From Candidatus Mediterraneibacter avicola (GTDB lineage Bacteria > Bacillota > Clostridia > Lachnospirales > Lachnospiraceae): 64,000 nucleotides of DNA. A program made the translations under genes and the position numbers. The stretch spans positions 18,694-82,693 of the forward strand of contig DXDR01000097.1 of the NCBI GenBank assembly GCA_019115385.1, written 5' to 3'. Below the pieces are notes generated by a model that worked only from the letters and a program-made list of their open reading frames with translations, ran no database searches and was not told the DNA's origin. Within the stretch, counting starts at the first letter, position 1, and every line of letters starts with the position of its first letter. Positions 2-15,577 of this stretch are shown piece after piece.

Positions 2-3000
2 GACGCAAGGGGCAATGACGTGAGAAACGGTATCTATCTTCCGGGCGGGGAAGACACGATCTGGATCGATTACTTCACGGGCGACCAGTACCGCGGGGGA
101 CAGGTATTAAACAACTTTGACGCTCCGCTGTGGAAAATCCCGCTCTTTGTGAAGAATGGAGCGATCATTCCCATGTACGCAGAGCACAATGTGGCGGATC
201 CGGACGCTGAGAACGGTGTGGACAAGACACAGCGTATCGTTGAGTTCTGGCCGGACGGCGAATCCGACTTTAACGCCATTGAGGATGACGGCACCTATGT
301 GGAAAATACAATAAACAGCGAAGATACAGATTATGGCGATCAGGAAAGTATTGATTACGGCGACCATGTCAAGACGACGTATACGTCAAGCGTGAAAGAC
401 GGCACAGCGACGCTGACGGCAGAAAAGTCAACAGGCACCTATGACGGATATGATAAGACGAAGTCTACGACATTTGTCGTAAATGCTTCCAAGGAACCTG
501 AATCAGTAGAGGCATATAATGGCGATGCGAAACTGACCGAGAATAAGGTAGGCAGCAAAGCAGCGTTTGACGAGGCAGTACCGGGATCAGACGAGTATGT
601 ATATTTCTACGATGAAAGCCCGGAAATTGAGACTTTTGCCTCAGCAAAGGAGAAGATCATCGCTGGTATGGTCGAAAACGTGGAAGTTTCTGGAAAGCTT
701 TATGTAAAATTCGCAAAGACCGATACACAGGCCAATGCACAGAAACTTGTGATCAACGGGTTTGAGAATAAAGGTGAACTGAATTCAACAGATCTCAACA
801 GTGATCTTACTGCTCCAATATTGAAAGAGAACGAAGAGGCAAAGACGCCTACGAGCATCACCCTTAACTGGGATGCGGTTGAGTTTGCCAACGGATACGA
901 GATCCTCGTTGACGGAACGATCGATGAAAGCGGCAATGTAACGAGCGGCATGATCCACTCTGTTCCTGGGGGCGACACTACGTCCTTTGCACATACAGAT
1001 CTCAACTATGCTTCGACACATACATATTATATCCGTGCGGTCAACGCCCAGGGCCATTCTGCATGGAGCGACAAGCTGGAGACTCAGTCTGCGGAGGATC
1101 CGTTCAGGCTCACGCCTGAAGTGACGGCTGACCAGGTGACATGGGAAGGTGACATTTACGGCAGCCATAATGCAATCCTTGCCTTTGATCAGGCATTCCA
1201 GACCGGCGACGGCGGATTCCACTCGGATGGAAATTCGATCGGACAGAAGCTCACAGTGGATTACGGCAATGCGTATGTGCTGGACTATGTCGAATATTAT
1301 CCGCGTGACGACGCGGGCAATGGCACAGTTACCCGGATGATGGTAGAGACAAGTCTGGACGGTGTCAACTGGATACAGCACGGTGACCAGACGGATGGAG
1401 AGGGAAATAAATATTTCCAGCTGGCATCTGATAAGACGGCGAAGAAACTGGATCTGAGCGATCCGAATACAGTTACAGATTCTATCGGGGCGCGCTATAT
1501 CCGCTTTACTCCGCTGGCATCGCTCGGTAATTTCTTTTCAGCGAGTGAGATAAAAGTATATACAGTGGACAATGCCGACGGCTCCACGGAACGTCCGTTC
1601 CGCGCGGGAAATATTACATCTTCCGGCCTGAGCGAGCCAACGCTTGGGACATTCCAGTTAATGTTCCAGAAGGCTTCTTCCGCTCATAAATCCGCAAAGG
1701 ACAGCACATGGGTAGGCGAGATCCAGAGTCAGTACGGCGATATTAACTTTAATGGTATATCAGATATCTGGGATTACGCGTTTACCGCGTTCTATGTAAA
1801 CGGAGGAACAAATAAGACCGGTGATGTGGCGGGAGACATCCTGCTGCTGCCAAGTGCGACGGAGATCAAGTCAGAAGACACCTTTACGATCGATGTGACG
1901 GCTCTTGATGCAGAGAACTTAAATGCGTATGGTTCCATCATCAACTACGATCCGTACAAGCTGGAATATGTCGATGTAGCATATACGGGAACCGGAAGTA
2001 TGTATACGCAGGGAATGACGGGCAATATTACAAACGATGACGGAACGGCGTATATCAATCATAATGCCATTAATATGGGCGATCAGCCGCTGGTCAACGG
2101 ATCAAAAGTGCTGGCGACGATCACGATGAGGGCGAAACAGGATATTACTCTGAACGGAGTAACAGATGTGGGTGACCCTGATTTTATCATTGACCTTTCG
2201 ACGGCAACGCTGATTGGGCCGACCTTTACTGTGAAGGAGAGCAAAGTTGTCCCAGAGGACGAGATAGATATACCTGATATTCCCACAACTACAACGACAA
2301 AGTACGGGCGGAATGATTTTACTATTACAATGACAAATGATGTTCTTGAGACTGACGATGGGACAAATGTAACGAAAATAGTTCAGCAGCAATCCTATGA
2401 CAGCCTGTTTAATGGTACATACGGACGTGAATTTGAGTTTATGTATGATTATGGCACAAATATTCTGGATGATTGTGTCAAGCTGCCCACGACAATACAC
2501 TTTGCTGTGAATACACCGTCAAAGATGTCGACAATTAAAGTACATAACGCGTCTACCAGCGGCAATGGGTATCTGACTTCAATGAGCGCTACTGTGTTCT
2601 ATGAGGATGGAACGAAGACGACAACAGACTTTGACGTACAGCAGGAAGTCTATGAAATTTCAGCAGACGCTTCCAAAAATGTGATAAAGGTGGATATAAC
2701 GCCAAAGACTTCTACAGGTACAGCTAATGAAAATAATAATCCGCGAGATAACCGGATGCTGACACTGGGCGAGATTGAGTTCCTTTATACAAACGGGGCT
2801 CCGCCGGAAAGCATTATCGCTGCTGAGGGCACAGTGCAAGAGATGTATGTCGGGTATGTAGAGAGTATTAATGCGGTCATAACTCCGGATGAATGCCAGA
2901 ATAAGTATTTTACTGTGACAAGCAGCAAAACGGATGTGGCATCCATTATTACAATGACTGATGAAAATGGAGCGCCCGTTTATAAAGTGCTTGGTGTCGG

Positions 3001-4582
3001 AGAAGGAGAAACAGAAATTACACTTACTACAGCGGCTAATAAGGCTGACGGAACTCCTGCTAAGTATACATATACATTAAAAGTAAATGCAGGCATAGAT
3101 AAGACGGATCTTAAAGATGCGATCCAGAAGACGGACGGAGTTGTGGAATCCATCTATACGGCAGATTCCTATGCGGCATATAGTGAAGCGTGGGAATATG
3201 CGCTTGAGATTGACGGAAAACCAGATGCAACCCGCGCAGAGGTGGAAAAAGCGACCGCAGACCTGCTGAATGCATATGATGCGCTGACAGTCCAGCCGGT
3301 GGATGATTCCTTAAAGCTCAAAGAGGCTGTTGTGGTCGACGGCGATGCATTATACAGCGACAGCAATGTATACAGCAATATGTTCGACGACGATCTTTCC
3401 ACTTTCTGGGAGTCCCCATATGGAAGAGAAGATGTGCAGCTTCCGCAGAAAGTCATACTGACGCTGGCAGATAATTACCTGCTTGAGCAGCTGAGCTTTA
3501 CATCCCATACGATCCACAACGGCGGTGTGACGCAGTACACAATTTCTGTCAGAACGGAAAACGGAGACTGGATAGAAGTGACAAGCGGTACCGTGGATGC
3601 GGATGCTTACAGGCAGGGACAAAATGTGCGCATAGATGCGAGATTCGCTCCCACGGAGGCAAAATATGTTAAGTTTACCGCTGTACAGTCAGTCGGAAGA
3701 ATTTCAGAAGAGGATAATGTCTATGCCCGCATCGCGGAGATGGATCTTTACGGTACGACGAGAGCGGATAAGACCAGCCTTAATAATCTGATCAGCACGG
3801 TAGACAATCTTGATCAAAGTAAGTATACAGAATCAAGCTGGGCTGCCTTAAGCGAGCCTCTTGCAAAGGCCAAGGCTGTATTCGCAGACAATTCTGCTAC
3901 AACAGCGGAAGTGAAGGATGCATACGATGCCCTCTATGCAGTATACAATGACCTTGAAGAGATTACGACTCCAGATCCGGATCCGGGAGAGTCTGTGAGA
4001 GACGAACTGGCGCAGGTGATCTCGGAAATGAGCGGTATAAAGAATAACAATTATACGGCAGATTCATGGAAGAGATTTGAAGATGCATACCAGGCTGCAC
4101 TGGATATGCAGGAAAACCTTTCTGCACCAGACGAGGAGGTACGTGCGGTAATAGAGGAACTGAAAGCGGCCTATACCGAACTGGATAAAGACTGGAAGGC
4201 AGAACTGGAAGATGTACTGGCTGAAATGCGCGGCGTGGCAAACGATAATTATACGGATGTGTCATGGGGCGTATTCCAGAGCCAGATCCAGGCCGCTCAG
4301 GATATGCTGGATGCAGGAGATGCATCTGACAGCGAACTGCAGGCAATGATAACGGCTCTTCAGAGAGCCCGCGGAGACCTTGTAAAGAAGGACGACGGTA
4401 CGACGAAGCCGGGCGGAGGCGATGGAAACGGCTCCGGCGGCGCACAGACCGGTGACGGAAAAGCTGATGACAACAAAGCTGTTCAGACAGGGGATAATAC
4501 ACCGGTAACAGGTCTCCTTACAGCAGTTCTGATTTCCGGCGGAGCGGTTGTAGTATTGGCCCGCAGGAAAAAGGAAAGATAA
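2..4582 (+). CDS. Multimodular cell-wall-anchored glycoside hydrolase, probably GH31 (5'-truncated by the window edge). Visible parts: GH31 C-terminal region, FN3, several F5/8 (CBM32)-like modules, dockerin-like motif, cohesin-like module, Ig-like module, FIVAR-like repeats, sortase signal
   Basis: The frame is open from position 2 (DARGNDVRNGIYLPGG-x5-IDYFTG...NNFDAPLWKIPLFVKNGAIIPM), which resembles the beta-domain after the GH31 barrel in clostridial enzymes. FN3 pattern TSITLNWDAV...YYIRAVN. Discoidin-like ARYIRFTP / AKYVKFTA motifs. Helical DKTDL/YTADSW repeats. C-terminal VQTGD + hydrophobic stretch + RRKKER. The catalytic barrel lies outside the window, so the GH family is inferred. 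Confidence 0.75.
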   Translation, partial: DARGNDVRNGIYLPGGEDTIWIDYFTGDQYRGGQVLNNFDAPLWKIPLFVKNGAIIPMYAEHNVADPDAENGVDKTQRIVEFWPDGESDFNAIEDDGTYVENTINSEDTDYGDQESIDYGDHVKTTYTSSVKDGTATLTAEKSTGTYDGYDKTKSTTFVVNASKEPESVEAYNGDAKLTENKVGSKAAFDEAVPGSDEYVYFYDESPEIETFASAKEKIIAGMVENVEVSGKLYVKFAKTDTQANAQKLVINGFENKGELNSTDLNSDLTAPILKENEEAKTPTSITLNWDAVEFANGYEILVDGTIDESGNVTSGMIHSVPGGDTTSFAHTDLNYASTHTYYIRAVNAQGHSAWSDKLETQSAEDPFRLTPEVTADQVTWEGDIYGSHNAILAFDQAFQTGDGGFHSDGNSIGQKLTVDYGNAYVLDYVEYYPRDDAGNGTVTRMMVETSLDGVNWIQHGDQTDGEGNKYFQLASDKTAKKLDLSDPNTVTDSIGARYIRFTPLASLGNFFSASEIKVYTVDNADGSTERPFRAGNITSSGLSEPTLGTFQLMFQKASSAHKSAKDSTWVGEIQSQYGDINFNGISDIWDYAFTAFYVNGGTNKTGDVAGDILLLPSATEIKSEDTFTIDVTALDAENLNAYGSIINYDPYKLEYVDVAYTGTGSMYTQGMTGNITNDDGTAYINHNAINMGDQPLVNGSKVLATITMRAKQDITLNGVTDVGDPDFIIDLSTATLIGPTFTVKESKVVPEDEIDIPDIPTTTTTKYGRNDFTITMTNDVLETDDGTNVTKIVQQQSYDSLFNGTYGREFEFMYDYGTNILDDCVKLPTTIHFAVNTPSKMSTIKVHNASTSGNGYLTSMSATVFYEDGTKTTTDFDVQQEVYEISADASKNVIKVDITPKTSTGTANENNNPRDNRMLTLGEIEFLYTNGAPPESIIAAEGTVQEMYVGYVESINAVITPDECQNKYFTVTSSKTDVASIITMTDENGAPVYKVLGVGEGETEITLTTAANKADGTPAKYTYTLKVNAGIDKTDLKDAIQKTDGVVESIYTADSYAAYSEAWEYALEIDGKPDATRAEVEKATADLLNAYDALTVQPVDDSLKLKEAVVVDGDALYSDSNVYSNMFDDDLSTFWESPYGREDVQLPQKVILTLADNYLLEQLSFTSHTIHNGGVTQYTISVRTENGDWIEVTSGTVDADAYRQGQNVRIDARFAPTEAKYVKFTAVQSVGRISEEDNVYARIAEMDLYGTTRADKTSLNNLISTVDNLDQSKYTESSWAALSEPLAKAKAVFADNSATTAEVKDAYDALYAVYNDLEEITTPDPDPGESVRDELAQVISEMSGIKNNNYTADSWKRFEDAYQAALDMQENLSAPDEEVRAVIEELKAAYTELDKDWKAELEDVLAEMRGVANDNYTDVSWGVFQSQIQAAQDMLDAGDASDSELQAMITALQRARGDLVKKDDGTTKPGGGDGNGSGGAQTGDGKADDNKAVQTGDNTPVTGLLTAVLISGGAVVVLARRKKER

Positions 4583-4625: not shown

Positions 4626-4671
4626 ATTTTGCCGGGATGCGGACATAGATCCGCTTCCCGGCAAAATTTTT
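4626..4671 (+). terminator. Rho-independent terminator after the GH gene
   Basis: ATTTTGCCGGGA...TCCCGGCAAAAT stem followed by a T run. Confidence 0.8.
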
Positions 4672-4816
4672 ATGGCAATGTATTGTGTGAAGGGCGAGAG
4701 CAAAATTTTGCAACGATCTGAAGCGAAATATTGACTTCCGTTTTCCGGTATAATATTTTTAAAGAAATAAAATACAGAAAGGAGTTCTGAAATATAGAAC
4801 AAAAGAGACTGATATT

Positions 4817-5581
4817 ATGAAAAAGACAGACTGTACAGTAAAAACATTAAAAAAATCCCTGAAGGTTCTGGACTGCTTTATTGATAATAAAGGAGAACCT
4901 CTGGGAATAACAGATATAGCTACGGAATTAAAACTCAACAAAAGCAATGTGCATGATATCCTTTATACATTTGAACAGATGGGATATCTGGAGAAAGACC
5001 CTGCCACTTCAAAATATGTTCTTTCTTTTAAAATGCTTGAATTTGGATATGCTGTAAATCAGCATTTAGGGTATGCGCGTTGTATGTATGACATTCTCCA
5101 GGAACTGTCCCATGCTGTAAATCAGATCGTATATTTTTCAGTCCCCAGAGGGACGGAACTTTTATTTCTGTATTCTGTATATCCGCATATCGAACAGCAT
5201 GATTTTCCATACAGATCTGTAAGCGGGGAAAAATGTCCTCTCTACTGTTCCTCAATGGGAAAAGCAATGCTGGCTTTTTCGCCTCCTGAACTCATGGAAA
5301 AGATGAAAAGTGTGGAATTTGAGCCGAGGTCTCCGTATACGATTACAAATTATGAGGACCTGGAAAAAGATATCGAAAAAGTACGGGAACGAGGTTACGC
5401 GCTGGACCTGGGCGAGTCGAAATATGAGACCGGCGCAGTTGGCGTTCCGATTTTTGACAGCCGCAATGTTCTGGTAGGAGCGATCAGTATTTGCGGGGCC
5501 CTGGCAACCATACGCAGCAACCATAAAGAGTATTCCGAAAAGTTAAAAGAAGCAGCGTTTAAGATCCGTATCCGTATATAA
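4817..5581 (+). CDS. IclR-family transcriptional regulator
   Basis: N-terminal wHTH (LGITDIATELKLNKSNVHDIL...GYLEKD), C-terminal CSSMGKAML and VRERGYALD...VGVPIF motifs, 254 aa. Confidence 0.92.
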   Translation: MKKTDCTVKTLKKSLKVLDCFIDNKGEPLGITDIATELKLNKSNVHDILYTFEQMGYLEKDPATSKYVLSFKMLEFGYAVNQHLGYARCMYDILQELSHAVNQIVYFSVPRGTELLFLYSVYPHIEQHDFPYRSVSGEKCPLYCSSMGKAMLAFSPPELMEKMKSVEFEPRSPYTITNYEDLEKDIEKVRERGYALDLGESKYETGAVGVPIFDSRNVLVGAISICGALATIRSNHKEYSEKLKEAAFKIRIRI

Positions 5582-5770
5582 ATGATACAACTGGAGCGGC
5601 TGTTCCATATAAATAAGCCAGTGCTTTTGCAGATACCTGGCTGTTAAAAAACGTATGGCAGCCTGTCTGATTATCAGGCAGACGGATCATAAATATTAAA
5701 AAGGAAAGGCAGGTGAAACAGAAATGGACGGCCCTCAGTATGATACTGCAAACAAAATGAAAGGAGATGT

Positions 5771-6820
5771 ATGATGAAAAAAATCCATATATCCGGGAAG
5801 GAGTTTGTGTGGGACGACCCTTCCGGATTGTATAAGGCATGCCATGTTTCAACCTGTCTTAAGAATGAAAATGGCGACCTGCTGACGGCTTATTTTGGAG
5901 GCACGAAGGAAGGCGCGCCGGATCTGGGCATCTGGCTGTCACGTAAAATAGACGGGAAATGGCAGCAGCCCAGAAGGATCAAATACATGTATGGCTTTCA
6001 GCACTGGAATCCTGTACTCCACAGGGATGGAGACAAGGTGCTCCTGTATTATAAGGTCGGACATGGAACCCACGACTGGTACACCCTGGTCACAGAATCC
6101 AGGGATTTTGGCGAGACATGGTCGGAATCCAGGGAAGCGGTCCCAGGAGATCACCGTCCCAGGGTAGTTACGAAAAACAATATCCTTGTGGCAGATGACG
6201 GGCGCTGGTTTGGCGGAAGCTCGACAGAAGGGGATCTTGACCACGACTGCTTTATTGATATTTCCGCAGATCGGGGAGTCACCTGGAATATGCATCCGAT
6301 TCCGTTTGAACACCGTTACCTTCCCCATCGCGGGAAAATTGAATGGGAGGGCATTAAGGAACTGTGGATGAGTGATCCGGATATCGTCCTGAAGTGGGAC
6401 GGAATTATACAGCCGACATTGTGGCAGAGTGAAAAAAATGTATTCCATTGTCTTATGAGAAGTTCCAGGGGAAAGATATACCGCTCGGATTCCACGGACG
6501 GCGGAGAAACCTGGTGCCAGGCATACCCGACGGATTTACCGAATAATAACTGTGGTATTAATCTGGTGCAGCTGCGGGACAGGACGCTGGTTCTCTTCCT
6601 TAATCCGGTGGATGTCAACTGGGGAGAGAGGACGCCGCTTTCAGCAGTAATCTCTGAAGATAACGGACAGACATGGTCGGAATATTTTCATCTGGAAACC
6701 GATGAGGGAGAGTATTCCTATCCATATGCGGTTACAGATGGATACACCATTGACCTGACTTATACATGGCGCCGGAAAAAGATTATGCATTGCGAGATAA
6801 CGCTGGATGAAAAGGGATAA
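5771..6820 (+). CDS. BNR/Asp-box beta-propeller protein (sialidase-like fold), no signal peptide
   Basis: Four Asp-boxes (SRDFGETW, SADRGVTW, STDGGETW, SEDNGQTW), N-terminal CHVST, C-terminal YSYP. The N-terminus is not hydrophobic. Confidence 0.8.
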   Translation: MMKKIHISGKEFVWDDPSGLYKACHVSTCLKNENGDLLTAYFGGTKEGAPDLGIWLSRKIDGKWQQPRRIKYMYGFQHWNPVLHRDGDKVLLYYKVGHGTHDWYTLVTESRDFGETWSESREAVPGDHRPRVVTKNNILVADDGRWFGGSSTEGDLDHDCFIDISADRGVTWNMHPIPFEHRYLPHRGKIEWEGIKELWMSDPDIVLKWDGIIQPTLWQSEKNVFHCLMRSSRGKIYRSDSTDGGETWCQAYPTDLPNNNCGINLVQLRDRTLVLFLNPVDVNWGERTPLSAVISEDNGQTWSEYFHLETDEGEYSYPYAVTDGYTIDLTYTWRRKKIMHCEITLDEKG

Positions 6821-6837
6821 CAGAAAGGATGAAAAAG

Positions 6838-7638
6838 ATGTATCAACTTGAGAAGATAAAGAAGAAGATATCTGAAAACCAGCCTGTTATCGGGGCCAAT
6901 ATACTTCTTAGCGACTGCGCGGTCAGTGAGATATTCGGATTTGCGGGATGCGACTATGTGTGGATAGATATGGAGCATTCTCCGCTGAGTTATAAGGATA
7001 CGGCCAATCATCTTATTGCTGCGCATTCCGGAGGCGCGGCGGCGTTTGTAAGGATTCCCTGGAACGATCCGGTAATGGTCAAACGTGTTCTGGACATGGG
7101 GCCGGACGGGATTATTATTCCTCTTATTAAAAACGCTGACGATGCCAGAAGAGCGATTTCTTTCTGCAGATATCCTCCCGCAGGGATCCGGGGATGGAAT
7201 CCGCTCCGTTCGAATAAGTACGGGTGTGTTGATAATGACTGGTATATAGAAAATGTTGACAGACTTGTCTGGAAAATATTAATGATCGAGCAGATTGAAG
7301 CGGTAGAAAATCTGGAAGAAATTCTGCAGGTAGACGGGGTGGACGCTATTCTGATCGGACCCAGCGACCTGACCGGTTCAATGGGAGTGCTGACGAAAAC
7401 AGACATCCCGGAAGTGAGAGACATAATTGTGCACATTATAAAAACGGCAAAGAAAGCAGGAGTTCCGGTCGCGCTTTCCGTACCGTCGGGAACCCCTGCC
7501 GAAGTGTTATGTGAATGGTTCAAAGAAGGAATACAGATAATATCCATCGGGCAGGATGAATATTTCCTCGCCGAGACAATCAGAAACGGCGTTTCCAATG
7601 CAAAAGAAGCATTCACAAGGTATATGCAGGAAACATAA
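6838..7638 (+). CDS. HpcH/HpaI-family class II pyruvate aldolase (2-keto-3-deoxy-acid aldolase)
   Basis: WIDMEH, VRIP, MIE and GPSDL motifs intact. Start could be 6829 or 6838; RBS spacing favours 6838. Confidence 0.9.
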   Translation: MYQLEKIKKKISENQPVIGANILLSDCAVSEIFGFAGCDYVWIDMEHSPLSYKDTANHLIAAHSGGAAAFVRIPWNDPVMVKRVLDMGPDGIIIPLIKNADDARRAISFCRYPPAGIRGWNPLRSNKYGCVDNDWYIENVDRLVWKILMIEQIEAVENLEEILQVDGVDAILIGPSDLTGSMGVLTKTDIPEVRDIIVHIIKTAKKAGVPVALSVPSGTPAEVLCEWFKEGIQIISIGQDEYFLAETIRNGVSNAKEAFTRYMQET

Positions 7639-7764
7639 TATCCGGCGGATTTTATGCTTGCGCATACGGGTATATTTTAACATATTCTCCGTAAAAAACA
7701 AATAACCGCAAGGATAATGATAAAAAATTTGATTGCAAAATACTTGAGAATGGAGGTAAGAGAT

Positions 7765-9084
7765 ATGAAGAAGACAATAAAAAAGTTTGTCGGTCTTGTG
7801 ATGGCGCTGGCTCTTCTGACAGGCCTGCTCGCAGGATGTTCAAATAACGGCGGGAATAATTCTGATGACAATGAAAGTGCCGACGGCGTCGTTAATATTG
7901 ATTTTTGGGGCGGATGGAACGGGTCTGACCTGGGAGTCATGGAAGAGATTGTTGAACAGTTTAATAATTCTCAGGACAATGTACATGTGACGCTTACAAC
8001 TTTCAGCTGGTCGGATATGTTCTCGAAGCTGGTCACCGAATATGCGGACGGCGTTCCATGCGACATACTAGGATTACACCCATTTGAGATCGGCCAGTAT
8101 GCGGAGATGGGTCTTTATAATCCAGAACCGGTTGTGGAACTCGGGCTTGATGAAAGTGATTATTCTGAAGTCGTATGGGACGCGACATTTTATGAGGGCG
8201 TTCAGTACGCCGTACCCCTGGACAGCCACATGCACGGCATATTTTATAATAAAGCCCTGTTTGAGGAATATGGTATTACAAAGGTTCCGGAAACCGGGGA
8301 TGAACTGGTGGAAACAGCAATACAGCTGACTGTTGATGCAAATGGCCTTCATCCTGATGAAACAGGATTTGACCCGGATAATATTGTGCAGTATGGACTG
8401 GGAATGGGAATGAATCATCATCTTTTATTCCAGTTCCAGACGCTGATGTGCCAGCAGGGGGAAGAACCGTTCACTGTCGATATGACAGAAGCAGATTTTG
8501 ACGATGAGAAAGCAGAAAAAGCGTTCACCTGGCTGCAGGATCTTGTTTTCAAATATCATGTGGCTCCTCTGGGTGAGACTTCTTATTCTGACGACTTTGT
8601 CAACGGCACGGTAGCTATGGCGATTGGAGGCTCCTGGGATGTGCCTAAGATTCAGTCTTCAGATATTGACTGGGGAGTAACATTGTATCCACAGGTATTT
8701 GACGATGAGAGAGCGTACTGGGCGGCGGCGCATATGCTTGTATTCCCGAGCAGCAAAAACCCGGATAAGGATAAAGTGGACGCAGCTGTTCAGTTTGCAT
8801 CATGGCTGACTGAAAATCTGCAGCTCTGGGCAGACGCGGGCTATGTCCCCAGCAGCAAACAGATGGAGTCTTATGTAGCGCAGGATGAAAATATCAGCGT
8901 CTGGCTTGAAGCGATGGACTATGCGCATTATATGCCTGCTCATCCAAAGGCTTCCCAGCTGTTTAACCAGTCCGCGCCCAGCCCATTTGTTACAGCATAT
9001 AGTTCCCTGATCCTGGACGGGGAGGATCCGGCTGAAGTTGTGCGACAGTTTAAGGCAGATCTGAACCAGATCCTTCAGGAATAA
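7765..9084 (+). CDS. Carbohydrate ABC transporter substrate-binding lipoprotein
   Basis: GGAGG RBS at 7752, lipobox LLAGC, DFWGGW and YAVPLD family-1 SBP motifs. Confidence 0.9.
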   Translation: MKKTIKKFVGLVMALALLTGLLAGCSNNGGNNSDDNESADGVVNIDFWGGWNGSDLGVMEEIVEQFNNSQDNVHVTLTTFSWSDMFSKLVTEYADGVPCDILGLHPFEIGQYAEMGLYNPEPVVELGLDESDYSEVVWDATFYEGVQYAVPLDSHMHGIFYNKALFEEYGITKVPETGDELVETAIQLTVDANGLHPDETGFDPDNIVQYGLGMGMNHHLLFQFQTLMCQQGEEPFTVDMTEADFDDEKAEKAFTWLQDLVFKYHVAPLGETSYSDDFVNGTVAMAIGGSWDVPKIQSSDIDWGVTLYPQVFDDERAYWAAAHMLVFPSSKNPDKDKVDAAVQFASWLTENLQLWADAGYVPSSKQMESYVAQDENISVWLEAMDYAHYMPAHPKASQLFNQSAPSPFVTAYSSLILDGEDPAEVVRQFKADLNQILQE

Positions 9085-9106
9085 AAACAGAACGGAAAGA
9101 CAGACG

Positions 9107-9133
9107 CGGAGCCGGACGCATGATCCGGCTCCG
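9107..9133 (+). promoter_or_regulatory. Intercistronic stem-loop after the SBP gene (probable mRNA stabiliser or partial terminator)
   Basis: CGGAGCCGGA-N7-TCCGGCTCCG perfect 10-bp stem between SBP and permease. Confidence 0.6.
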
Positions 9134-9154
9134 GGTTTCAGCAAGAAAAGGAGA

Positions 9155-10024
9155 GTGAGAAAAGTGAAAAAACAAAATTTGACTGCCTTTCTTTTCCTGG
9201 CGCCGTATCTGATTATCTTTGTCCTTTTTCGGTTTGGGCCAAGTGTGGCCGGGGTACTGATCAGCCTGACGGACTGGAATATTATCGGGGACATCAACTT
9301 TGTAGGGCTCGATAATTTTAAGAAACTGTTCCAGACAGACTATTTCTGGACAGCGCTGGGGAATACAGCGAAATTTGTGGCCATTGTTGTGCCCTGCGTT
9401 GTGGTCCTCAGTCTTGCGCTGGCAGTTCTTTTCAATCAGAAACTACGTTTCAAAGGGATTGCCAGAGCTGTGACAATCATTCCGTACGTGCTGATCCCGG
9501 CTGTAGTAGGAGTGATCTGGAACTGGATGTATTCTTACAAATCAGGAATTTTAAACTATTATATCGGAAAGGCAGGAATGGAGCCGGTCGGCTGGCTGAT
9601 AGACCAGAAATATGCTCTGATATCGATTGCTATTGTAATTATATGGTCGTATCTTGGTTATAATATGCTGCTGTTCCTCGCCGGGCTGCAGAATATTCCA
9701 CAGGAGCTGCGCGAGGCGGCGATTCTGGACGGCGCGGATCCGCGGCAGTCCTTTTTCAAAATTACACTGCCTCTGCTGAGGCCGGTAACTTCGCTTGTAG
9801 TTACTCTGAGTTTTGTCAATACGATCCAGGTATATGATCAGATATATGTAATGACAAACGGAGGACCCGGGACAGCCTCGATGACACTGGTGCAGTATAT
9901 GTACACAAGTGCGTTTAAAGACTATGATATGGGCTACGGTTCTGCGGTGGGTACGGTGATCGTTTTCATACTTATAGCGGTATATTTTGTTACAAATAAA
10001 ATCCTGAAATCGGAGGTGGAGTGA
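9155..10024 (+). CDS. Carbohydrate ABC transporter permease 1
   Basis: Multiple TM segments, EAA motif (ELREAAILDGA), MTNGGP. Confidence 0.93.
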   Translation: MRKVKKQNLTAFLFLAPYLIIFVLFRFGPSVAGVLISLTDWNIIGDINFVGLDNFKKLFQTDYFWTALGNTAKFVAIVVPCVVVLSLALAVLFNQKLRFKGIARAVTIIPYVLIPAVVGVIWNWMYSYKSGILNYYIGKAGMEPVGWLIDQKYALISIAIVIIWSYLGYNMLLFLAGLQNIPQELREAAILDGADPRQSFFKITLPLLRPVTSLVVTLSFVNTIQVYDQIYVMTNGGPGTASMTLVQYMYTSAFKDYDMGYGSAVGTVIVFILIAVYFVTNKILKSEVE

Positions 10025-10860
10025 TGGGGCGAAGAAAGATTAAAAAAGTATTGCTGTATTTGTGTATGGCCGGCGCTCTGTTTGTATTCCTGTTTCCCGT
10101 TGTGTGGGCGGTTATCTGTTCTTTCAAAAGCGAGATGGAAATAATCCGCTGGCCGCCGACATGGCTGCCGGAACATTTTACTCTTGAGAACTACCAGTAT
10201 ATGCTTGAAAATTATCCATTTTTAAAATGGACATTTAACAGTATAGTAACATCTGTATGTAGTACGCTTCTTATCCTGGTTTCAGCTTCCATGGCCGCGT
10301 ACGCATTTGCCCGGCTGGAGTTTACCGGGAAAAGGATCATTTATATTTTAATAGTAGGTATGCTGCTTCTTCCGATTCAGTCCTATATTATCCCGCTTTA
10401 TCTCTGGGTAAATAAGATGGGGATCAGGGATACGCTGGCTTCACTGGTTCTTGTGTCGGCGGCAAATGTGACAAGTGTATTTATATTAACTAATTTTTAT
10501 AAGACGATTCCCAAAGAACTTGAGGATGCCGCGCGGATAGACGGATGCACCCATTTTGGAATTTACTGGCGAATCGTACTCCCATTGTCGAAGGCAAGCA
10601 TGTCGTCAGTCGCAATTATTTCTTTTATTACAAGCTGGAACAGCTTCCTCTGGCCCATGCTGTCTCTTCGGACGGATAAATGGAAACCGCTTTCCGTAGG
10701 CGTTGGGACATATGTGGGATCATTTTTAAACAGCAACGGTTTTCAATATGGTCCGTCCCTGGCGGCGGCATGTATGGCCATTGTACCTACGGTACTTGTG
10801 TATCTTCTCCTGCAGAAGAATTTTATACAGGGGATATCAAATACGGGACTGAAAGGGTAG
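10021..10860 (+). CDS. Carbohydrate ABC transporter permease 2
   Basis: EAA-like ELEDAARIDGC, SWNSFLWP; overlaps the stop of permease 1 (GTGA). Confidence 0.93.
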   Translation: MMGRRKIKKVLLYLCMAGALFVFLFPVVWAVICSFKSEMEIIRWPPTWLPEHFTLENYQYMLENYPFLKWTFNSIVTSVCSTLLILVSASMAAYAFARLEFTGKRIIYILIVGMLLLPIQSYIIPLYLWVNKMGIRDTLASLVLVSAANVTSVFILTNFYKTIPKELEDAARIDGCTHFGIYWRIVLPLSKASMSSVAIISFITSWNSFLWPMLSLRTDKWKPLSVGVGTYVGSFLNSNGFQYGPSLAAACMAIVPTVLVYLLLQKNFIQGISNTGLKG

Positions 10861-10936
10861 AAAAACATAAGGAGTTCCCCGTCGGCGACGGGGGCAAAAT
10901 GGAAAATAAAACAGAGATATGTCTGCGCTTTGAAAT

Positions 10937-10976
10937 AAAAAAGGACATGCCGCAAATCCGCTCATGTCCTTTCTTT
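10937..10976. terminator. Bidirectional terminator between the ABC operon and the tRNA
   Basis: AAAAAAGGACATG...CATGTCCTTTCTTT. Confidence 0.75.
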
Positions 10977-10981
10977 ATGCA

Positions 10982-11055
10982 CGTGCGATAGAAGATTCGA
11001 ACTCCCGACCTTCTGGTCCGTAGCCAGACGCTCTATCCAGCTGAGCTAATCGCAC
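10982..11055 (-). tRNA. tRNA-Arg (anticodon ACG), CCA not encoded
   Basis: Reverse complement GTGCGATTAGCTCAGCTGGATAGAGCGTCTGGCTACGGACCAGAAGGTCGGGAGTTCGAATCTTCTATCGCACG: 7-bp acceptor stem, D-loop, CT-ACG-GA anticodon loop, GTTCGAAT T-loop. Confidence 0.97.
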
Positions 11056-11087
11056 TTATGAATGCTGTTTCGTCCACAGCAGAAATA

Positions 11088-11116
11088 ATTATAGTATATA
11101 TTTTGAGAAACGTCAA
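11088..11116 (-). promoter_or_regulatory. sigma-A promoter of the tRNA
   Basis: TTGACG-17 bp-TATAAT on the minus strand, about 30 nt upstream of the tRNA. Confidence 0.8.
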
Positions 11117-11295
11117 GCAAAAAATAGATTTTTACAAAAAAAGTGGTGTGAGGGCGCCGGGATCAGGGGATAAAACGGCCTTGTTTTTCCTTTCGTATGT
11201 TGCTACAATGACAGAAGATACAGTCTTTCATGAATTTACGGTCAGAAAAGCATACCGTGATTCACATGACTTTTGAGAAGGGAGATGAGATCACT

Positions 11296-12708
11296 ATGGA
11301 AAACAGTGAGCGCACCGACATGAAGAGGATTCTGGAAAAGCAGAAACGGTTTTTTTCCAGAGGCGTTACAAAAGATATCTCTTTTCGGAAAAAGGCTCTG
11401 AAACATCTGAAAAGGGCGATCCGCTGTTATGAAGAGGACCTGGAACACGCCCTGAACCTGGATCTGGGAAAACATAAGGCAGAGGCTTATATGACGGAGA
11501 TCGGATTTGTGCTTGCAGGGATCTCTCAGGCAGTCCGCAATCTGGAAAAGTGGGCGGAGGAAGAGAACGTGCTGACGCCCGTCTATATGCAGCCGGGAAG
11601 GAGCCGGATAAGGAAGGAGCCATACGGCAGTGTTCTGGTGATCGGACCTTATAATTACCCGTTCCAGCTTCTGATGGAGCCGCTTGTAGGAGCGATCGCA
11701 GCGGGCAACTGTGCTGTTGTGCGGACGTCGAAGCAGACGCCCCACACCTCGGAGGCGATACGCCGTATGCTGGTACACGCATTCCGGCCGGAATATATAT
11801 ACTGCGCTGCGGGGGACGAGGTGGACAGCCAGGAACTTTTGAACCAGAGGTTTGACTATATTTTTTTTACAGGAAGTCCCCGTGTAGGGAGACTTGTTAT
11901 GAAAGCGGCGGCAGATAACCTGATACCGGTGACCCTGGAACTGGGAGGAAAGAGTCCGGTTATCGTAGATAAGACCGCAGATATCCCCACGGCGGCCAGA
12001 CGGATCATGTGGGGTAAACTCCTCAATGCGGGGCAGACATGCGTCGCGCCGGATTATATCCTGGCGGATGCATCTGTCATTGACAGGCTCATCGGGAGTC
12101 TGAAGGATGCGTCAGAAGAACTGTACGGGAAAAATATCGTGCGGAATCCGGATTATGGGAGAATTGTAAACCAGAAACACTATACCAGGCTGGCCGGGAT
12201 CCTGGAGGCGGACAGGGAATGGATCGTATACGGCGGGGAAAAGTCGGAAAAGCTCCGTTTTATCGGTCCCGCGATCCTGAATCTGGGCCCGGTATCGGGG
12301 GAGGCGCAGGAACGGGCCGCCTCTATGCAGGAGGAATTGTTCGGGCCGGTTCTGCCTGTGCTGGCATATGACAGACTGCAGGAGGCTCTGGACTTTATCA
12401 ATGAGAGAGAGCGGCCTCTGGCGCTGTACCTGTTTACGGAAGACAGGGATACAAGAGACCGGGTGCTGGAGCATACCTGCTCCGGGGGCGTATGTGTAAA
12501 CGATACGGTAGAACATCTTGTGAATCACAGACTTCCTTTCGGCGGAATTGGAAATTCCGGCATGGGCCGGTATCATGGCAGATATGGGTTTGATACATTT
12601 ACTCATCTGCGGGCTGTATACGAAAAGCCGCCGGGGCGCGGCATGACTCCGGGGTATCCGCCCTACAGTGAGACAAAGCTGAAGCTGATCAGGAAATTTT
12701 TGAGATAA
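11296..12708 (+). CDS. NAD(P)-dependent aldehyde dehydrogenase (ALDH3/YwdH-like)
   Basis: LELGGKSP, NAGQTCVAPDY (catalytic Cys), EELFGP, PFGGIGNSG. Confidence 0.93.
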   Translation: MENSERTDMKRILEKQKRFFSRGVTKDISFRKKALKHLKRAIRCYEEDLEHALNLDLGKHKAEAYMTEIGFVLAGISQAVRNLEKWAEEENVLTPVYMQPGRSRIRKEPYGSVLVIGPYNYPFQLLMEPLVGAIAAGNCAVVRTSKQTPHTSEAIRRMLVHAFRPEYIYCAAGDEVDSQELLNQRFDYIFFTGSPRVGRLVMKAAADNLIPVTLELGGKSPVIVDKTADIPTAARRIMWGKLLNAGQTCVAPDYILADASVIDRLIGSLKDASEELYGKNIVRNPDYGRIVNQKHYTRLAGILEADREWIVYGGEKSEKLRFIGPAILNLGPVSGEAQERAASMQEELFGPVLPVLAYDRLQEALDFINERERPLALYLFTEDRDTRDRVLEHTCSGGVCVNDTVEHLVNHRLPFGGIGNSGMGRYHGRYGFDTFTHLRAVYEKPPGRGMTPGYPPYSETKLKLIRKFLR

Positions 12709-12741
12709 TGTGGTTCCGCATAACGGACGAGATTAATAAAG

Positions 12742-12778
12742 AAAGCACGGACTTCTGTCAGATGAGTCCGTGCTTTTT
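12742..12778. terminator. Bidirectional terminator between convergent genes
   Basis: AAAGCACGGACT...AGTCCGTGCTTTTT. Confidence 0.75.
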
Positions 12779-13549
12779 GCAGTAATAGTAGACCCCATCT
12801 TCCGCTGCGCTGCCGCAGACGTCGTCTGCAGCGGATTTTACGATGTCTGATGCATTTCCCATGGCAACGCCGGTTCCCACAGTTTTCAGCATCTCTATAT
12901 CGTTGGCGCCGTCTCCGAATGCGATCGCCTGCTCCTTTGTCAGACAATAGTAATCCAGTACCTTTTCTATGCCAAAGCCTTTGCTTCCGGTAGCTGATAT
13001 GACATCCGCAGCCCGGGACCACCAGGCCGTGATCTTTGCTCCCTGCACTCCTTCCAGAATGATGGGGTACTCTTCCTCCCGGCAGCCTAACATGATCTGG
13101 AATATTTCTTCTCTGGACAGTTCGTCAAAGTCATCTGCGATAACCAGATCATGCCCGGAGATAGCATAGTAATCTTCCAGATCTTTGTCGCTTCCGTTTG
13201 CTCCCATGCGCGAGGCTCCGGCAACAGCTACAGGGCGGTTGATCTTACCTGCATTCCGGATAACTGTCTGTACATCGGCAGGCGGGATAGGATTGCGGAA
13301 GATCACTTCGTCATCCGTGTAGCAGTATGATGCATTGAATGTCAGATTGGCGTCAAAATCAATGCCCGGAAACCGGGGAAGAATAGACGGGGGCCGTCCC
13401 GTAGCAAGACAGATTTTGACCCCTTTTTCTTTCAGGCGGATCAGTGCCTCCGCCGTTTTGGTGGTGATCTGCTTTCTGCCGATATCGATCAGCGTACCGT
13501 CTATATCGAAAAAGGCGATTCGAATGTCCTTAAAATTATCTGAAGTCAT
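12758..13549 (-). CDS. Cof-type HAD-IIB hydrolase
   Basis: FFDIDGTL, LATGR, SKG, AFGDGANDIEML motifs. Confidence 0.92.
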   Translation of the reverse strand: MTSDNFKDIRIAFFDIDGTLIDIGRKQITTKTAEALIRLKEKGVKICLATGRPPSILPRFPGIDFDANLTFNASYCYTDDEVIFRNPIPPADVQTVIRNAGKINRPVAVAGASRMGANGSDKDLEDYYAISGHDLVIADDFDELSREEIFQIMLGCREEEYPIILEGVQGAKITAWWSRAADVISATGSKGFGIEKVLDYYCLTKEQAIAFGDGANDIEMLKTVGTGVAMGNASDIVKSAADDVCGSAAEDGVYYYCKKHGLI

Positions 13550-13690
13550 GTCAGCCTCCTGTTTAATTCGTTAATTCAGAGATTCTATCTGATACATCAG
13601 GATGCCGGGGGCAAAAGGTGTCTCAGCCCTGGCATCACATCATAAGTATAACATCAGATAAGGGATGCTGCTACAAATTTTCAAAAACGG

Positions 13691-13719
13691 TTGACAAATA
13701 TAGAAACATAGTGCACTAT
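13691..13719 (+). promoter_or_regulatory. Promoter with overlapping palindromic operator for the GntR-ABC operon
   Basis: TTGACA at 13691; perfect palindrome ATAGTGCACTAT (13708-13719) covering the expected -10 position. Confidence 0.55.
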
Positions 13720-13764
13720 TTAACTATGTCACTAGTACGCTACTGTAGTAAAAGGAGGGATGGC

Positions 13765-14127
13765 ATGGAATATAATCCGAACGCTCCCATATATATGCAG
13801 GTTATACGGGAACTGAAAAAACTGATGATAAAGGGAGAGTTAAAACCTGGCCAGAAGATGCCGTCAAACCGGGACCTGGCTGTGCTTTTTAAAGTCAATC
13901 AGAATACAGCGGCAAGAGTATACAAGGAGATGGAAAATGAAGGCTGCTGCTATACAAGGCGGGGAATCGGGACATTTGTCTCAGAGGAGGAAGAGATGAT
14001 CGAGAATCTAAAAAAGGAAATGGCAGATGAACTTCTCAGAAACTTTATACAGGAGATGAAAGATCTGGGTTTTCAGAAGGATGACATTATATTTCAGATT
14101 GCAGATTATAAGGAGGAACAGGAATGA
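13765..14127 (+). CDS. GntR-family (YtrA subfamily) regulator
   Basis: AGGAGG RBS; PIYMQV...PSNRDLAVLFKVNQNTAARVYKEME...RRGIGTFV; short C-terminal domain. Confidence 0.92.
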   Translation: MEYNPNAPIYMQVIRELKKLMIKGELKPGQKMPSNRDLAVLFKVNQNTAARVYKEMENEGCCYTRRGIGTFVSEEEEMIENLKKEMADELLRNFIQEMKDLGFQKDDIIFQIADYKEEQE

Positions 14128-14810
14128 TACTGGAATGCAGGAATCTGACAAAATCATACAGGGGAAAAAGAGCGGTTTCTAATCTGAATGTCCGCCTCGA
14201 GGAGGGGAAGATTTACGGGCTGCTGGGGGAGAACGGAAGCGGCAAGACTACGTGGATGAAAATGATGGCCGGGCTTGCAAAGCCTTCTCAGGGAGAGATA
14301 TTCTATAACGGCCATCCGCTGAATTACATGGACAAAAATGAGATTGCATATATGGCGACAGAGTCTTTTTATTATGACTATATGAAAGTCTCGGATGTAG
14401 AAAAATATTACGCAGATTTTTTTCAGGACTTTAACCCTCAGAAATTTAAGGAGCTTATCGCAAGGTTTGGCCTTGACGGGCAGATGAAAGCGCGAAATCT
14501 GTCCAGCGGAATGAACGCAAAGCTCAGGATCGCGGCTACTCTGGCAAGGGACGCGAAACTCTGTATGCTGGACGAACCGCTTAACGGAGTGGATTACAAG
14601 GCGAGGGAGGACATTATCTCGATCATAGTGGAAGAAGCGGACGAAAACAGGACGTTTGTAATATCTACCCATTTGATAGAAGAAGTGGAGAGCTTTGTGG
14701 AAAAGGCTATATTTATTAAAAACGGCGAACTGATCAAACTTGTGGATCTGGAGCAGGAACGGGCAGCGGGCGGACGGTCGCTGGCTGAGATTTATATATC
14801 GGTTATGTAA
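14124..14810 (+). CDS. ABC transporter ATP-binding protein
   Basis: GENGSGKTT, LSSGM, LDEP, STH. Confidence 0.93.
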   Translation: MILECRNLTKSYRGKRAVSNLNVRLEEGKIYGLLGENGSGKTTWMKMMAGLAKPSQGEIFYNGHPLNYMDKNEIAYMATESFYYDYMKVSDVEKYYADFFQDFNPQKFKELIARFGLDGQMKARNLSSGMNAKLRIAATLARDAKLCMLDEPLNGVDYKAREDIISIIVEEADENRTFVISTHLIEEVESFVEKAIFIKNGELIKLVDLEQERAAGGRSLAEIYISVM

Positions 14811-14821
14811 GGAGGAGAAAA

Positions 14822-15577
14822 ATGTTAAAACTTGTGAAATATGAATGGAAAAAGCAGCGCACATCAAGGCTGGTGATCCTCGGGCTGCTGGCAGCAGGGC
14901 TGATCGCTTTTTGGGGAGGCATTCTGTTTAGGAACGATACAGTTACGGTCCTGAGTCTGGCTTTTCTGTATACCTTTGCAGTGATGGTGCTCTTTTATAC
15001 AGGTGTGGAAAGTGTTCTGGTCTTTAACAGAGATCTTCGGACGAAGCAAAGTTATATGCTTTTTATGGTTCCCAAGTCCATATGGCAGATACTGGGAGCA
15101 AAATTTGTATCAGCTATCCTTCAGATGCTGTTTGTGTTTGCCCTGTTTTTTACGGCGGGATGCCTGAGTCTGGCAGCGGCCATCTGGCACTCGGGAAAGA
15201 TAGAGGCATTTGTACAATTCGCTGAAGATTTAATCCAGGCATTTACGGAACACCAGTTTGACTGGATGGTTCTGGTCGAGGCGGCGTTTATCCTCTTCCT
15301 TGGCTGGGTACTGATCATTATGATCGGATTCCTGGCAGTGATCCTCGCCCGGACTGTACTGGCGAAGTCCAGATTTGCCGGACTGTTTGCATTCATCCTT
15401 TTCTTTCTTATTAATGTGGCCGTGGAGTGGGGATTCCGGTTCTCTGATCTGCTGCCGGACGTGGCAGGAAAAGGGTATTTCGGCTGGGATATCTGGAACA
15501 TTCTTTACTATATTGTTGCCTGCGGAGGTCTGTTTCTAGTATCCGGATGGCTTGCGGACAGAAAACTGAGTGTGTGA
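14822..15577 (+). CDS. ABC-2-type permease
   Basis: About 6 TM segments, follows the ATPase with its own GGAG RBS. Confidence 0.8.
   Translation: MLKLVKYEWKKQRTSRLVILGLLAAGLIAFWGGILFRNDTVTVLSLAFLYTFAVMVLFYTGVESVLVFNRDLRTKQSYMLFMVPKSIWQILGAKFVSAILQMLFVFALFFTAGCLSLAAAIWHSGKIEAFVQFAEDLIQAFTEHQFDWMVLVEAAFILFLGWVLIIMIGFLAVILARTVLAKSRFAGLFAFILFFLINVAVEWGFRFSDLLPDVAGKGYFGWDIWNILYYIVACGGLFLVSGWLADRKLSV

Follow-up and report, generated by a model that had tools for sequence, protein, structure and literature searches.

A conserved cassette of Candidatus Mediterraneibacter avicola that pairs a sialidase-fold propeller with a class II pyruvate aldolase, best read as a module for a Kdo-type ulosonic acid

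We asked which acidic sugar could be handled by six co-oriented genes (positions 4817-10860, + strand) in a 64,000-nucleotide stretch of the genome of Candidatus Mediterraneibacter avicola (contig DXDR01000097.1; the whole stretch is called the window below). The identities of the genes are a direct observation: they encode an IclR-family regulator, a BNR_2 propeller, an HpcH/HpaI aldolase, the substrate-binding lipoprotein (SBP) of an ATP-binding cassette (ABC) importer and two permeases, and all six lie in the order and orientation given by the initial annotation of this DNA. With a probability of roughly 0.55, we read this cassette as an IclR-controlled unit for the uptake and cleavage of a 3-deoxy-2-ulosonic acid of the 3-deoxy-D-manno-octulosonate (Kdo) type, a reading in which we infer the substrate, the chemistry of the propeller and the fate of the aldehyde. 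In the proposed mechanism, the binding protein and the two permeases would import the acid, either free or as a small glycoside, powered by an unlinked MsmK-type ATPase. The leaderless, sialidase-fold propeller would then free the ulosonate, or convert it to its free form, in the cytoplasm. Finally, the HpcH class II aldolase would split the ulosonate into pyruvate and an aldose, which would be D-arabinose if the acid is Kdo. HpcH would thus take the role that in most relatives is held by a dedicated class I aldolase of the dihydrodipicolinate synthase (DHDPS)/NanA type.

Do these genes stand together by chance? We compared 80 loci, taken from contigs of one genome per species, after clustering their open reading frames (ORFs), and also looked at further related contigs. 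In all, the unit or its core is present on at least nine other contigs from metagenomes and genomes. The gene set of the window recurs in loci L085-L089 and L116, and its core recurs in L113 and in L001, a Lachnospiraceae metagenome-assembled genome and, among named sources, the nearest to the cassette; therefore the grouping is not due to chance, and the search for BNR_2, HpcH and SBP clusters proposed in the initial annotation did find such clusters. The propeller relatives that share 84% and 77% identity have the gene order IclR-BNR-HpcH-SBP-permease-permease, and the 77% group carries an extra DUF386 (YhcH/NanQ-like) gene after the permeases. At 62-64% identity the order is HpcH-BNR-SBP-permease-permease with IclR nearby, and at 53% a BNR-HpcH pair is followed by a tripartite ATP-independent periplasmic (TRAP) transporter, DctPQM. 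The IclR gene is found at the head or flank of the sibling cassettes in L085, L086, L088, L115, L116, L121 and L122. The DNA of the window was also found in chicken-gut metagenomes.

We then asked how constant the aldolase is within this arrangement. In a maximum-likelihood tree, the window propeller belongs to a well-supported Firmicute subclade that is nested in a clade linked to DHDPS, Tct, isomerase and kinase genes. Within this subclade the aldolase partner switches repeatedly among four lineages, two of DHDPS and two of HpcH. The main DHDPS subfamily is present in L114 and L115 and the second DHDPS lineage in L002; HpcH lineage A comprises the window, L085, L086 and L113, and lineage B comprises L088 and L116, A and B being only 34-37% identical. 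Moreover, cassettes with the same frame of IclR, binding protein and permeases carry DHDPS instead of HpcH in L115, L121 and L122. Thus, the regulator-importer-propeller frame stays constant while the class of the aldolase varies, and this exchange is seen directly in the gene orders. Because the window clade nests in a DHDPS-linked clade and sister cassettes with the same regulator and importer carry DHDPS, the sequences argue that HpcH displaced a class I lyase in the window lineage, which bears out the earlier suggestion that a class II aldolase is used here in place of a NanA-type lyase.

Two observations concern the surroundings of sibling cassettes. Insertion sequence or transposase genes interrupt or flank the cassettes in L116 (positions 5137-10424) and L088 (positions 6818-7009), which suggests that the cassette unit moves between genomes. 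In the metagenomic locus L113 (positions 1-600 and 13880-14983), a gene for a URO-D-like protein of the MtaA type follows BNR-HpcH-TRAP, and genes for a B12-binding protein and a PocR/AraC regulator lie upstream; these neighbours hint at demethylation of a methylated acidic sugar.

What reaction could the HpcH protein catalyze? Its residues H50, R75, E154 and D180, which correspond to the catalytic and metal-binding positions, are conserved in alignment to 1dxe (Escherichia coli GarL) and 4b5s, in line with the intact class II pyruvate aldolase seen by the initial annotation. The protein has the fold of GarL, HpaI and RhmA (YfaU; PDB 1dxe, 2v5j, 2vws) and keeps the metal ligands as well as the catalytic Arg and His of these enzymes, which cleave 2-keto-3-deoxy acids to pyruvate and an aldehyde. 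In contrast to these enzymes, its genomic partner is a sialidase-fold protein and not a dehydratase, and its identity to GarL (1dxe) is only ∼38%. It scores below the GarL equivalog cut-offs (177.7 bits versus 393 for NF007849 and 174.8 versus 406.75 for TIGR03239) and is also under the HpaI and RhmA equivalog cut-offs. We propose that it cleaves an ulosonate to pyruvate and an aldose or aldehyde.

To which ulosonate do the neighbourhoods of the whole propeller family point? A DHDPS-family gene adjoins the propeller in half of the loci (40/80). With a single exception, the DHDPS partners that were compared are orthologous, sharing 44-56% identity with one another even between phyla. They are remote from every solved member (best match YagE, 57 bits) and form a dedicated subfamily. 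An operon found in 17-20 of the 80 loci (Enterobacterales, Rhodoferax and others), and without a match in E. coli complete genomes, consists of genes for an FGGY kinase, an isomerase-like protein, DHDPS, BNR, TctC-TctB-TctA and LacI. Its kinase passes the TIGR01315 model for pentulose kinases (562 bits versus a cut-off of 409). For the isomerase-like protein, Pfam gives no more than a sub-threshold match and a sequence search of the PDB gives none; its AlphaFold2 (AF2) model matches only L-fucose/D-arabinose and L-arabinose isomerases (FucI/AraA fold, E 1e-19 to 1e-13), and a true FucI takes its place in some loci. FucI isomerises D-arabinose, and the fuc enzymes of E. coli K-12 are a known D-arabinose route. 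The recurrence of the lyase, the FucI-type isomerase, the pentulose kinase and the acid-type carrier speaks for pyruvate (three carbons) plus a pentose as products and so for an eight-carbon sugar, hence Kdo. In these relatives, Kdo would be split into pyruvate and D-arabinose, and D-arabinose would be converted via D-ribulose to ribulose-5-phosphate. Other recurrent neighbours of the propeller are TRAP and major facilitator superfamily (MFS) carriers, NanQ-like DUF386 proteins, GFO/IDH/MocA oxidoreductases and PF12831 flavoproteins.

Kdo from lipopolysaccharide (LPS), capsules or the pectin rhamnogalacturonan II (RG-II) is accordingly the most likely substrate of the cassette, with 3-deoxy-D-lyxo-heptulosarate (Dha) as the main alternative. 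Kdo is a component of nearly all Gram-negative LPS and of the RG-II of plants. The firmicute loci add a context of glycosidases: in Paenibacillus and Clostridia, the propeller-aldolase pair is accompanied by an oligosaccharide-type importer and by a GH106-like rhamnosidase relative, and in the closest DHDPS-type sister of the window clade (L114) the pair lies beside two GH127 genes. These GH106-like and GH127 partners correspond to the two side chains of RG-II with an ulosonic acid at their end, Rha-(1,5)-Kdo and Araf-(1,5)-Dha (PMC13501991). The non-canonical ulosonate of the initial annotation, for which Kdo, Dha and 2-keto-3-deoxynononic acid (KDN) had been named as examples, is thereby supported by the DHDPS, acid-carrier and NanQ-like partners but narrowed to Kdo or possibly Dha, and KDN is argued against (see below).

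Two further neighbourhoods of the propeller were noted. Genes for PF12831 FAD-dependent oxidoreductases adjoin it in the unrelated genomes of L003, L042, L052, L088 and L089. In Vibrio sinensis (L038, positions 9418-14919), DHDPS-TctCBA-BNR lies back to back with minus-strand genes for FucI, an FGGY kinase and an iron-dependent alcohol dehydrogenase and two small unannotated ORFs; this minus-strand run is probably an L-fucose operon.

The importer was examined in the same way. No ATPase gene is present in the cassette, as the initial annotation had remarked, but this is ordinary: CUT1 importers usually share an ATPase encoded elsewhere. Searches of the host genome, which covered the 2.58-Mb assembly (98 contigs), found a single MalK/MsmK-type (OB_MalK) ATPase on contig C39, unlinked to the cassette, and the absent ATPase was therefore ruled out as a peculiarity of this locus. 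We infer that the C39 ATPase powers the importer. The CUT1 set is thus complete, with the SBP_bac_1 lipoprotein and two BPD_transp_1 permeases in the cassette and the ATPase on C39. Permease 1 is 57-58% identical to permeases adjoining BNR and DHDPS in Paenibacillus (L024, L051, L055), and permease 2 is 54% identical to its Paenibacillus counterparts. As an independent check on the constant frame, relatives of the binding protein (43-49% identity) are located in three DHDPS cassettes, two of which contain a BNR gene: IclR-DHDPS-SBP-permease-permease-BNR beside FucI in Hydrogenispora, and LacI-SBP-permease-permease-BNR-DHDPS. The third (L122) reads IclR-DHDPS-SBP-permease-permease plus a flavoprotein, without a propeller. 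In this locus (positions 6040-12841) a 547-aa fumarate-reductase-type flavoprotein occupies the usual position of the propeller.

We next consider what the propeller itself could do. As first annotated, it carries four Asp-boxes (SRDFGETW, SADRGVTW, STDGGETW and SEDNGQTW), its N-terminus (MMKKIHISGKEF) has no hydrophobic leader, and no RIP motif is found in it. Its AF2 model (confidence, pLDDT, 93.7) is a six-bladed beta-propeller, and nearly all of the top 50 Foldseek matches of this model are GH33-type sialidases with a TM score of ∼0.7; the fold search was more informative than a single-sequence search of the PDB, which gave only weak sialidase matches. In a profile alignment to solved and canonical sialidases, R230 aligns with Arg2, R287 with Arg3 and Y317 with the nucleophilic Tyr, and these three positions are invariant in propeller relatives, as are R131, R238 and R335, each of them a candidate for the third Arg of the triad. 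Taken together, model and alignment indicate an enzyme of GH33 fold whose active site is modified, not a standard sialidase. The family is large: 2,148 clusters are matched by the window protein and 3,760 by a Klebsiella member (E <= 1e-60). Its members are ∼345 aa long and leaderless, are annotated in their sources only as 'sialidase family protein' or 'predicted neuraminidase', and occur in Proteus mirabilis, Dickeya, Brenneria, Serratia, Klebsiella, Pasteurellaceae, Rhodoferax, Paenibacillus, Clostridia and others. We propose that the propeller releases or converts a Kdo-type 3-deoxy-2-ulosonic acid in the cytoplasm.

Several observations weigh against the Kdo reading as a whole or against hydrolysis by the propeller. 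The first group concerns the active site, for which the initial annotation had suggested a search for an Arg triad and a Tyr/Glu pair. Arg2, Arg3 and Tyr were found as described above, but the RIP Arg is absent: the sequence of the corresponding strand, C24-H25-x-S27, does not vary among 24 relatives, although the alignment is uncertain there. An invariant Glu47 is aligned at the position of the acid/base Asp of GH33, and the Glu partner of the Tyr is apparently replaced by an invariant Gln214, a placement that depends on a manual register of the IQPTLW strand across an hhalign gap and is likewise uncertain. The second group concerns the neighbourhoods. The Tct, TRAP and MFS carriers of relatives suggest a monomer that needs no glycosidase, the sister cassette L122 lacks the propeller altogether, ∼29 of 72 family members have no aldolase within 7 kb, and the GH127 neighbours of L114 fit Dha as well as Kdo. 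The third group concerns the host. An isomerase and a pentulose kinase, as expected for a D-arabinose product, are absent from the cassette and from the genome, in which we found no match to FucI or the FucI-like protein, no FGGY protein above the TIGR01315 cut-off and no DUF386. As no route for the aldose is visible in this genome, the assignment to Kdo is borrowed from relatives at 41-49% identity; here the substrate may instead be Dha, or only the pyruvate of Kdo may be harvested. Of the import-then-hydrolyse route of the initial annotation, uptake and cleavage of an ulosonate is thus retained, while hydrolysis of a glycoside is less secure, given the loss of the RIP Arg, the apparent Gln for Glu, the monomer-type carriers and the propeller-less L122.

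A cluster on contig C75 of the same genome, with DHDPS, FGGY and PfkB genes, was considered as the missing lower pathway and rejected, as its products are only 22-27% identical to the BNR-linked enzymes. This region (L119, C75 positions 57000-66000) encodes a Na+/H+-antiporter-like carrier, an FGGY kinase, a Cof HAD protein, a BtpA-family protein, a 320-aa protein, a PfkB protein, a DHDPS-like protein and a second PfkB protein.

The objections to hydrolysis lead to the first of the other explanations, which keeps the pathway and the substrate class and differs in the propeller. This protein would not be a glycosidase but a converter of a free ulosonate that is modified or in the wrong form (2,3-dehydro, 2,7-anhydro, wrong anomer or ring form), paralleling NanOx/NanY, NanM and NanQ. 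The active-site changes just described and the propeller-less L122 would fit such a role, and so would most proteobacterial relatives, which have monomer-type carriers (TctABC, TRAP, MFS) and no other glycosidase. Neighbours of the GFO/IDH/MocA oxidoreductase family, to which NanOx belongs, also occur in some relatives. Nevertheless, Arg2, Arg3 and Tyr of the glycosidase machinery are invariant, several loci already hold a NanQ-like anomerase, and in firmicute loci the propeller is accompanied by oligosaccharide-type binding proteins and by glycosidases that are GH106-like or of GH127, which fits trimming of glycosides. We regard a converter as unlikely, though well worth keeping in mind; retention of the three residues and the glycosidase-rich firmicute contexts favour a ketosidase acting on small imported glycosides.

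A second explanation is that the locus is an ordinary one for glucarate/galactarate or a 2-keto-3-deoxy-aldonate, in which HpcH is GarL/RhmA-like and the propeller adjoins it without any functional relation. The best model matches of HpcH are indeed GarL, HpaI and RhmA, and in L044 the propeller-adjacent HpcH gene is accompanied by GarR-like, enolase-superfamily and GntP genes. This is hard to reconcile with equivalog scores that are all far under their cut-offs, with a cassette that has no dehydratase, and with a propeller-aldolase pairing that is kept in several phyla, whichever of four aldolase lineages or three types of transporter is present; we give this explanation very little weight.

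N-acetylneuraminic acid (Neu5Ac) or KDN is unlikely to be the substrate, as NanE is absent from the genome and the enzymes encoded in relatives are a FucI-type isomerase and a pentulose kinase. A variant salvage of these acids, with a cytoplasmic sialidase acting on imported sialosides and HpcH replacing NanA, is the least probable explanation of all: the GH33 fold of the propeller, the upstream GH31/CBM32/FIVAR enzyme of a type found in host-glycan degraders and the existence of CUT1 importers for sialic acid would agree with it, but no sibling cassette has a NanK or NanE gene, the conserved partners of the family are not N-acetylmannosamine (ManNAc) enzymes, and the RIP motif is absent.

How does the preferred reading, an uptake-and-cleavage unit for a Kdo-type acid, compare with known systems? 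The nan clusters, such as nanATEK-yhcH of E. coli and the 2,7-anhydro-Neu5Ac cluster of Ruminococcus gnavus (with binding protein/ABC importer, NanOx and NanA), follow the same logic: an ulosonic acid is imported, processed in the cytoplasm and cleaved by a pyruvate lyase. The likeness extends to the NanQ/YhcH-like DUF386 protein in cassette siblings and to the NanA-family (DHDPS) aldolase in relatives. The window differs from a canonical nan cluster in its class II HpcH aldolase, in the lack of NanE and NanK and in a sialidase-fold protein that is cytoplasmic and without the RIP arginine; furthermore, the FucI-type isomerase and pentulose kinase of relatives imply a pentose product. No DHDPS gene is present in the cassette, and the two DHDPS genes elsewhere in the genome encode DapA and an unrelated paralogue. 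The catabolic cassette is real and conserved and as yet uncharacterised; its best reading is a unit of nan-like design, with a class II aldolase, for the uptake and cleavage of a Kdo-type acid.

Could the same hold for the whole family? It is conceivable, though we would wager slightly against it, that the RIP-less propellers are the cytoplasmic Kdo/Dha processors of a widespread, undescribed Kdo-eating pathway, and that their partners, the DHDPS subfamily and two independently recruited HpcH lineages, are the missing Kdo aldolase (EC 4.1.2.23). This activity, which yields pyruvate and D-arabinose, is cited in PMC12199768 as purified in 1966 by Ghalambor and Heath, and according to recent papers an annotated Kdo aldolase is still lacking (PMC10619137, PMC12199768). 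In the searchable literature, no gene is assigned to EC 4.1.2.23, which is known as an enzyme activity only, and we found neither a described Kdo catabolic gene cluster nor work on the Dickeya or Proteus homologues. The proposed aldolase step is the same reaction, for which the candidate of the window is a class II HpcH protein and those of relatives are class I proteins of the DHDPS type. If true, the pathway would let gut and soil bacteria (Proteus, Dickeya, Paenibacillus, Lachnospiraceae) use LPS cores, capsules and pectin RG-II. Confirmation would give genes to an orphan EC number, explain a gene set that is annotated in thousands of genomes as 'exo-alpha-sialidase' plus 'dihydrodipicolinate synthase family', reveal recycling of LPS- and pectin-derived acidic sugars by gut bacteria and provide a natural case of replacement of a class I by a class II aldolase inside one pathway. 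In addition, further enzymes that act on Kdo would serve as tools for the analysis of LPS and pectin and for the synthesis of ulosonic acids.

Two systems that release Kdo are already described, and we compared them by description. The RG-II enzymes of Bacteroides thetaiotaomicron act outside the cytoplasm. Among them, a Kdo hydrolase domain at the C-terminus of BT1013 and the GH143 Dha hydrolase at the N-terminus of BT1020 free Kdo or Dha from pectin side chains (PMC13501991). The firmicute propeller relatives resemble this system, by description and context, in adjoining GH106-like and GH127 enzymes; unlike the window propeller, the Bacteroides hydrolases form part of large multi-domain proteins. 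For the breakdown of the released Kdo or Dha, no gene of Bacteroides is described. In a two-protein Kdo hydrolase of Francisella and Helicobacter, one subunit is reportedly sialidase-like and removes a Kdo residue, but it is said to need a membrane partner and to act at the membrane. This hydrolase remodels the bacterium's own LPS and is not catabolic (PMC3573668), in contrast to the role proposed for the window propeller.

The features of the cassette are collected in Table 1. Successive genes are separated by 189, 8, 78, 70 and -4 nt. The left edge is formed by a terminator hairpin (inverted repeat, 4626-4667) of the preceding GH31 gene, and the promoter-like site lies downstream of it. The IclR protein is KdgR/PcaR-like but remains below every equivalog cut-off (KdgR model, 93 bits versus 275), and no conserved IclR operator was found in the IclR-BNR spacer and three sibling loci. 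The true start of the binding protein is probably the second Met, at 7765.

Table 1. Features of the cassette and its putative promoter (window coordinates)
Feature	Position	Strand	Length	Remarks
Promoter-like site	4731-4759	+		TTGACT, 17 nt, TATTTT; ∼58 nt 5' of IclR start; consensus scan, pattern match only
IclR-family regulator	4817-5581	+	254 aa	HTH_IclR 46 bits; IclR_C 116 bits
Leaderless GH33-fold propeller	5771-6820	+	349 aa	BNR_2 202 bits; four Asp-boxes
HpcH/HpaI class II metal-dependent pyruvate aldolase	6829-7638	+	269 aa	PF03328 119.6 bits versus cut-off 25
CUT1-type ABC substrate-binding lipoprotein	7717-9084	+		SBP_bac_8 and SBP_bac_1; lipobox LLAGC
ABC permease 1 (UgpA/MalF-like)	9155-10024	+		BPD_transp_1
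ABC permease 2 (UgpE/MalG-like)	10021-10860	+		BPD_transp_1; 4-nt overlap with permease 1

Upstream, positions 2-4582 (+ strand) encode the C-terminal part, 1,526 aa long, of a very large surface protein with GH31 C-terminal, FN3, F5/8 type C (CBM32-like), cohesin and FIVAR domains, which looks like an extracellular glycan-degrading enzyme. Downstream, a minus-strand tRNA-Arg(ACG) gene (10982-11055) lies between the cassette and a gene for a class-3 aldehyde dehydrogenase (11230-12708, + strand; MdlD-like, 417 bits versus a cut-off of 550), which is followed by a convergent gene for a Cof-type HAD phosphatase (12758-13549, - strand). The dehydrogenase was considered as a member of the pathway and rejected, because the tRNA gene intervenes and because it is not found 3' of the cassette in L086 and L087, the loci with downstream sequence; the phosphatase is likewise not found there. 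The initial annotation had listed nan, kinase and dehydrogenase genes as missing, which holds for DHDPS in the cassette and NanE in the genome but has to be qualified for this adjoining, though unlinked, dehydrogenase. Within the cassette, an 11-bp GC-rich stem-loop (9107-9133) is situated in the 70-nt gap directly 3' of the binding-protein gene. It may act as an intra-operon stabiliser or partial terminator that lifts the output of the binding protein over that of the permeases.

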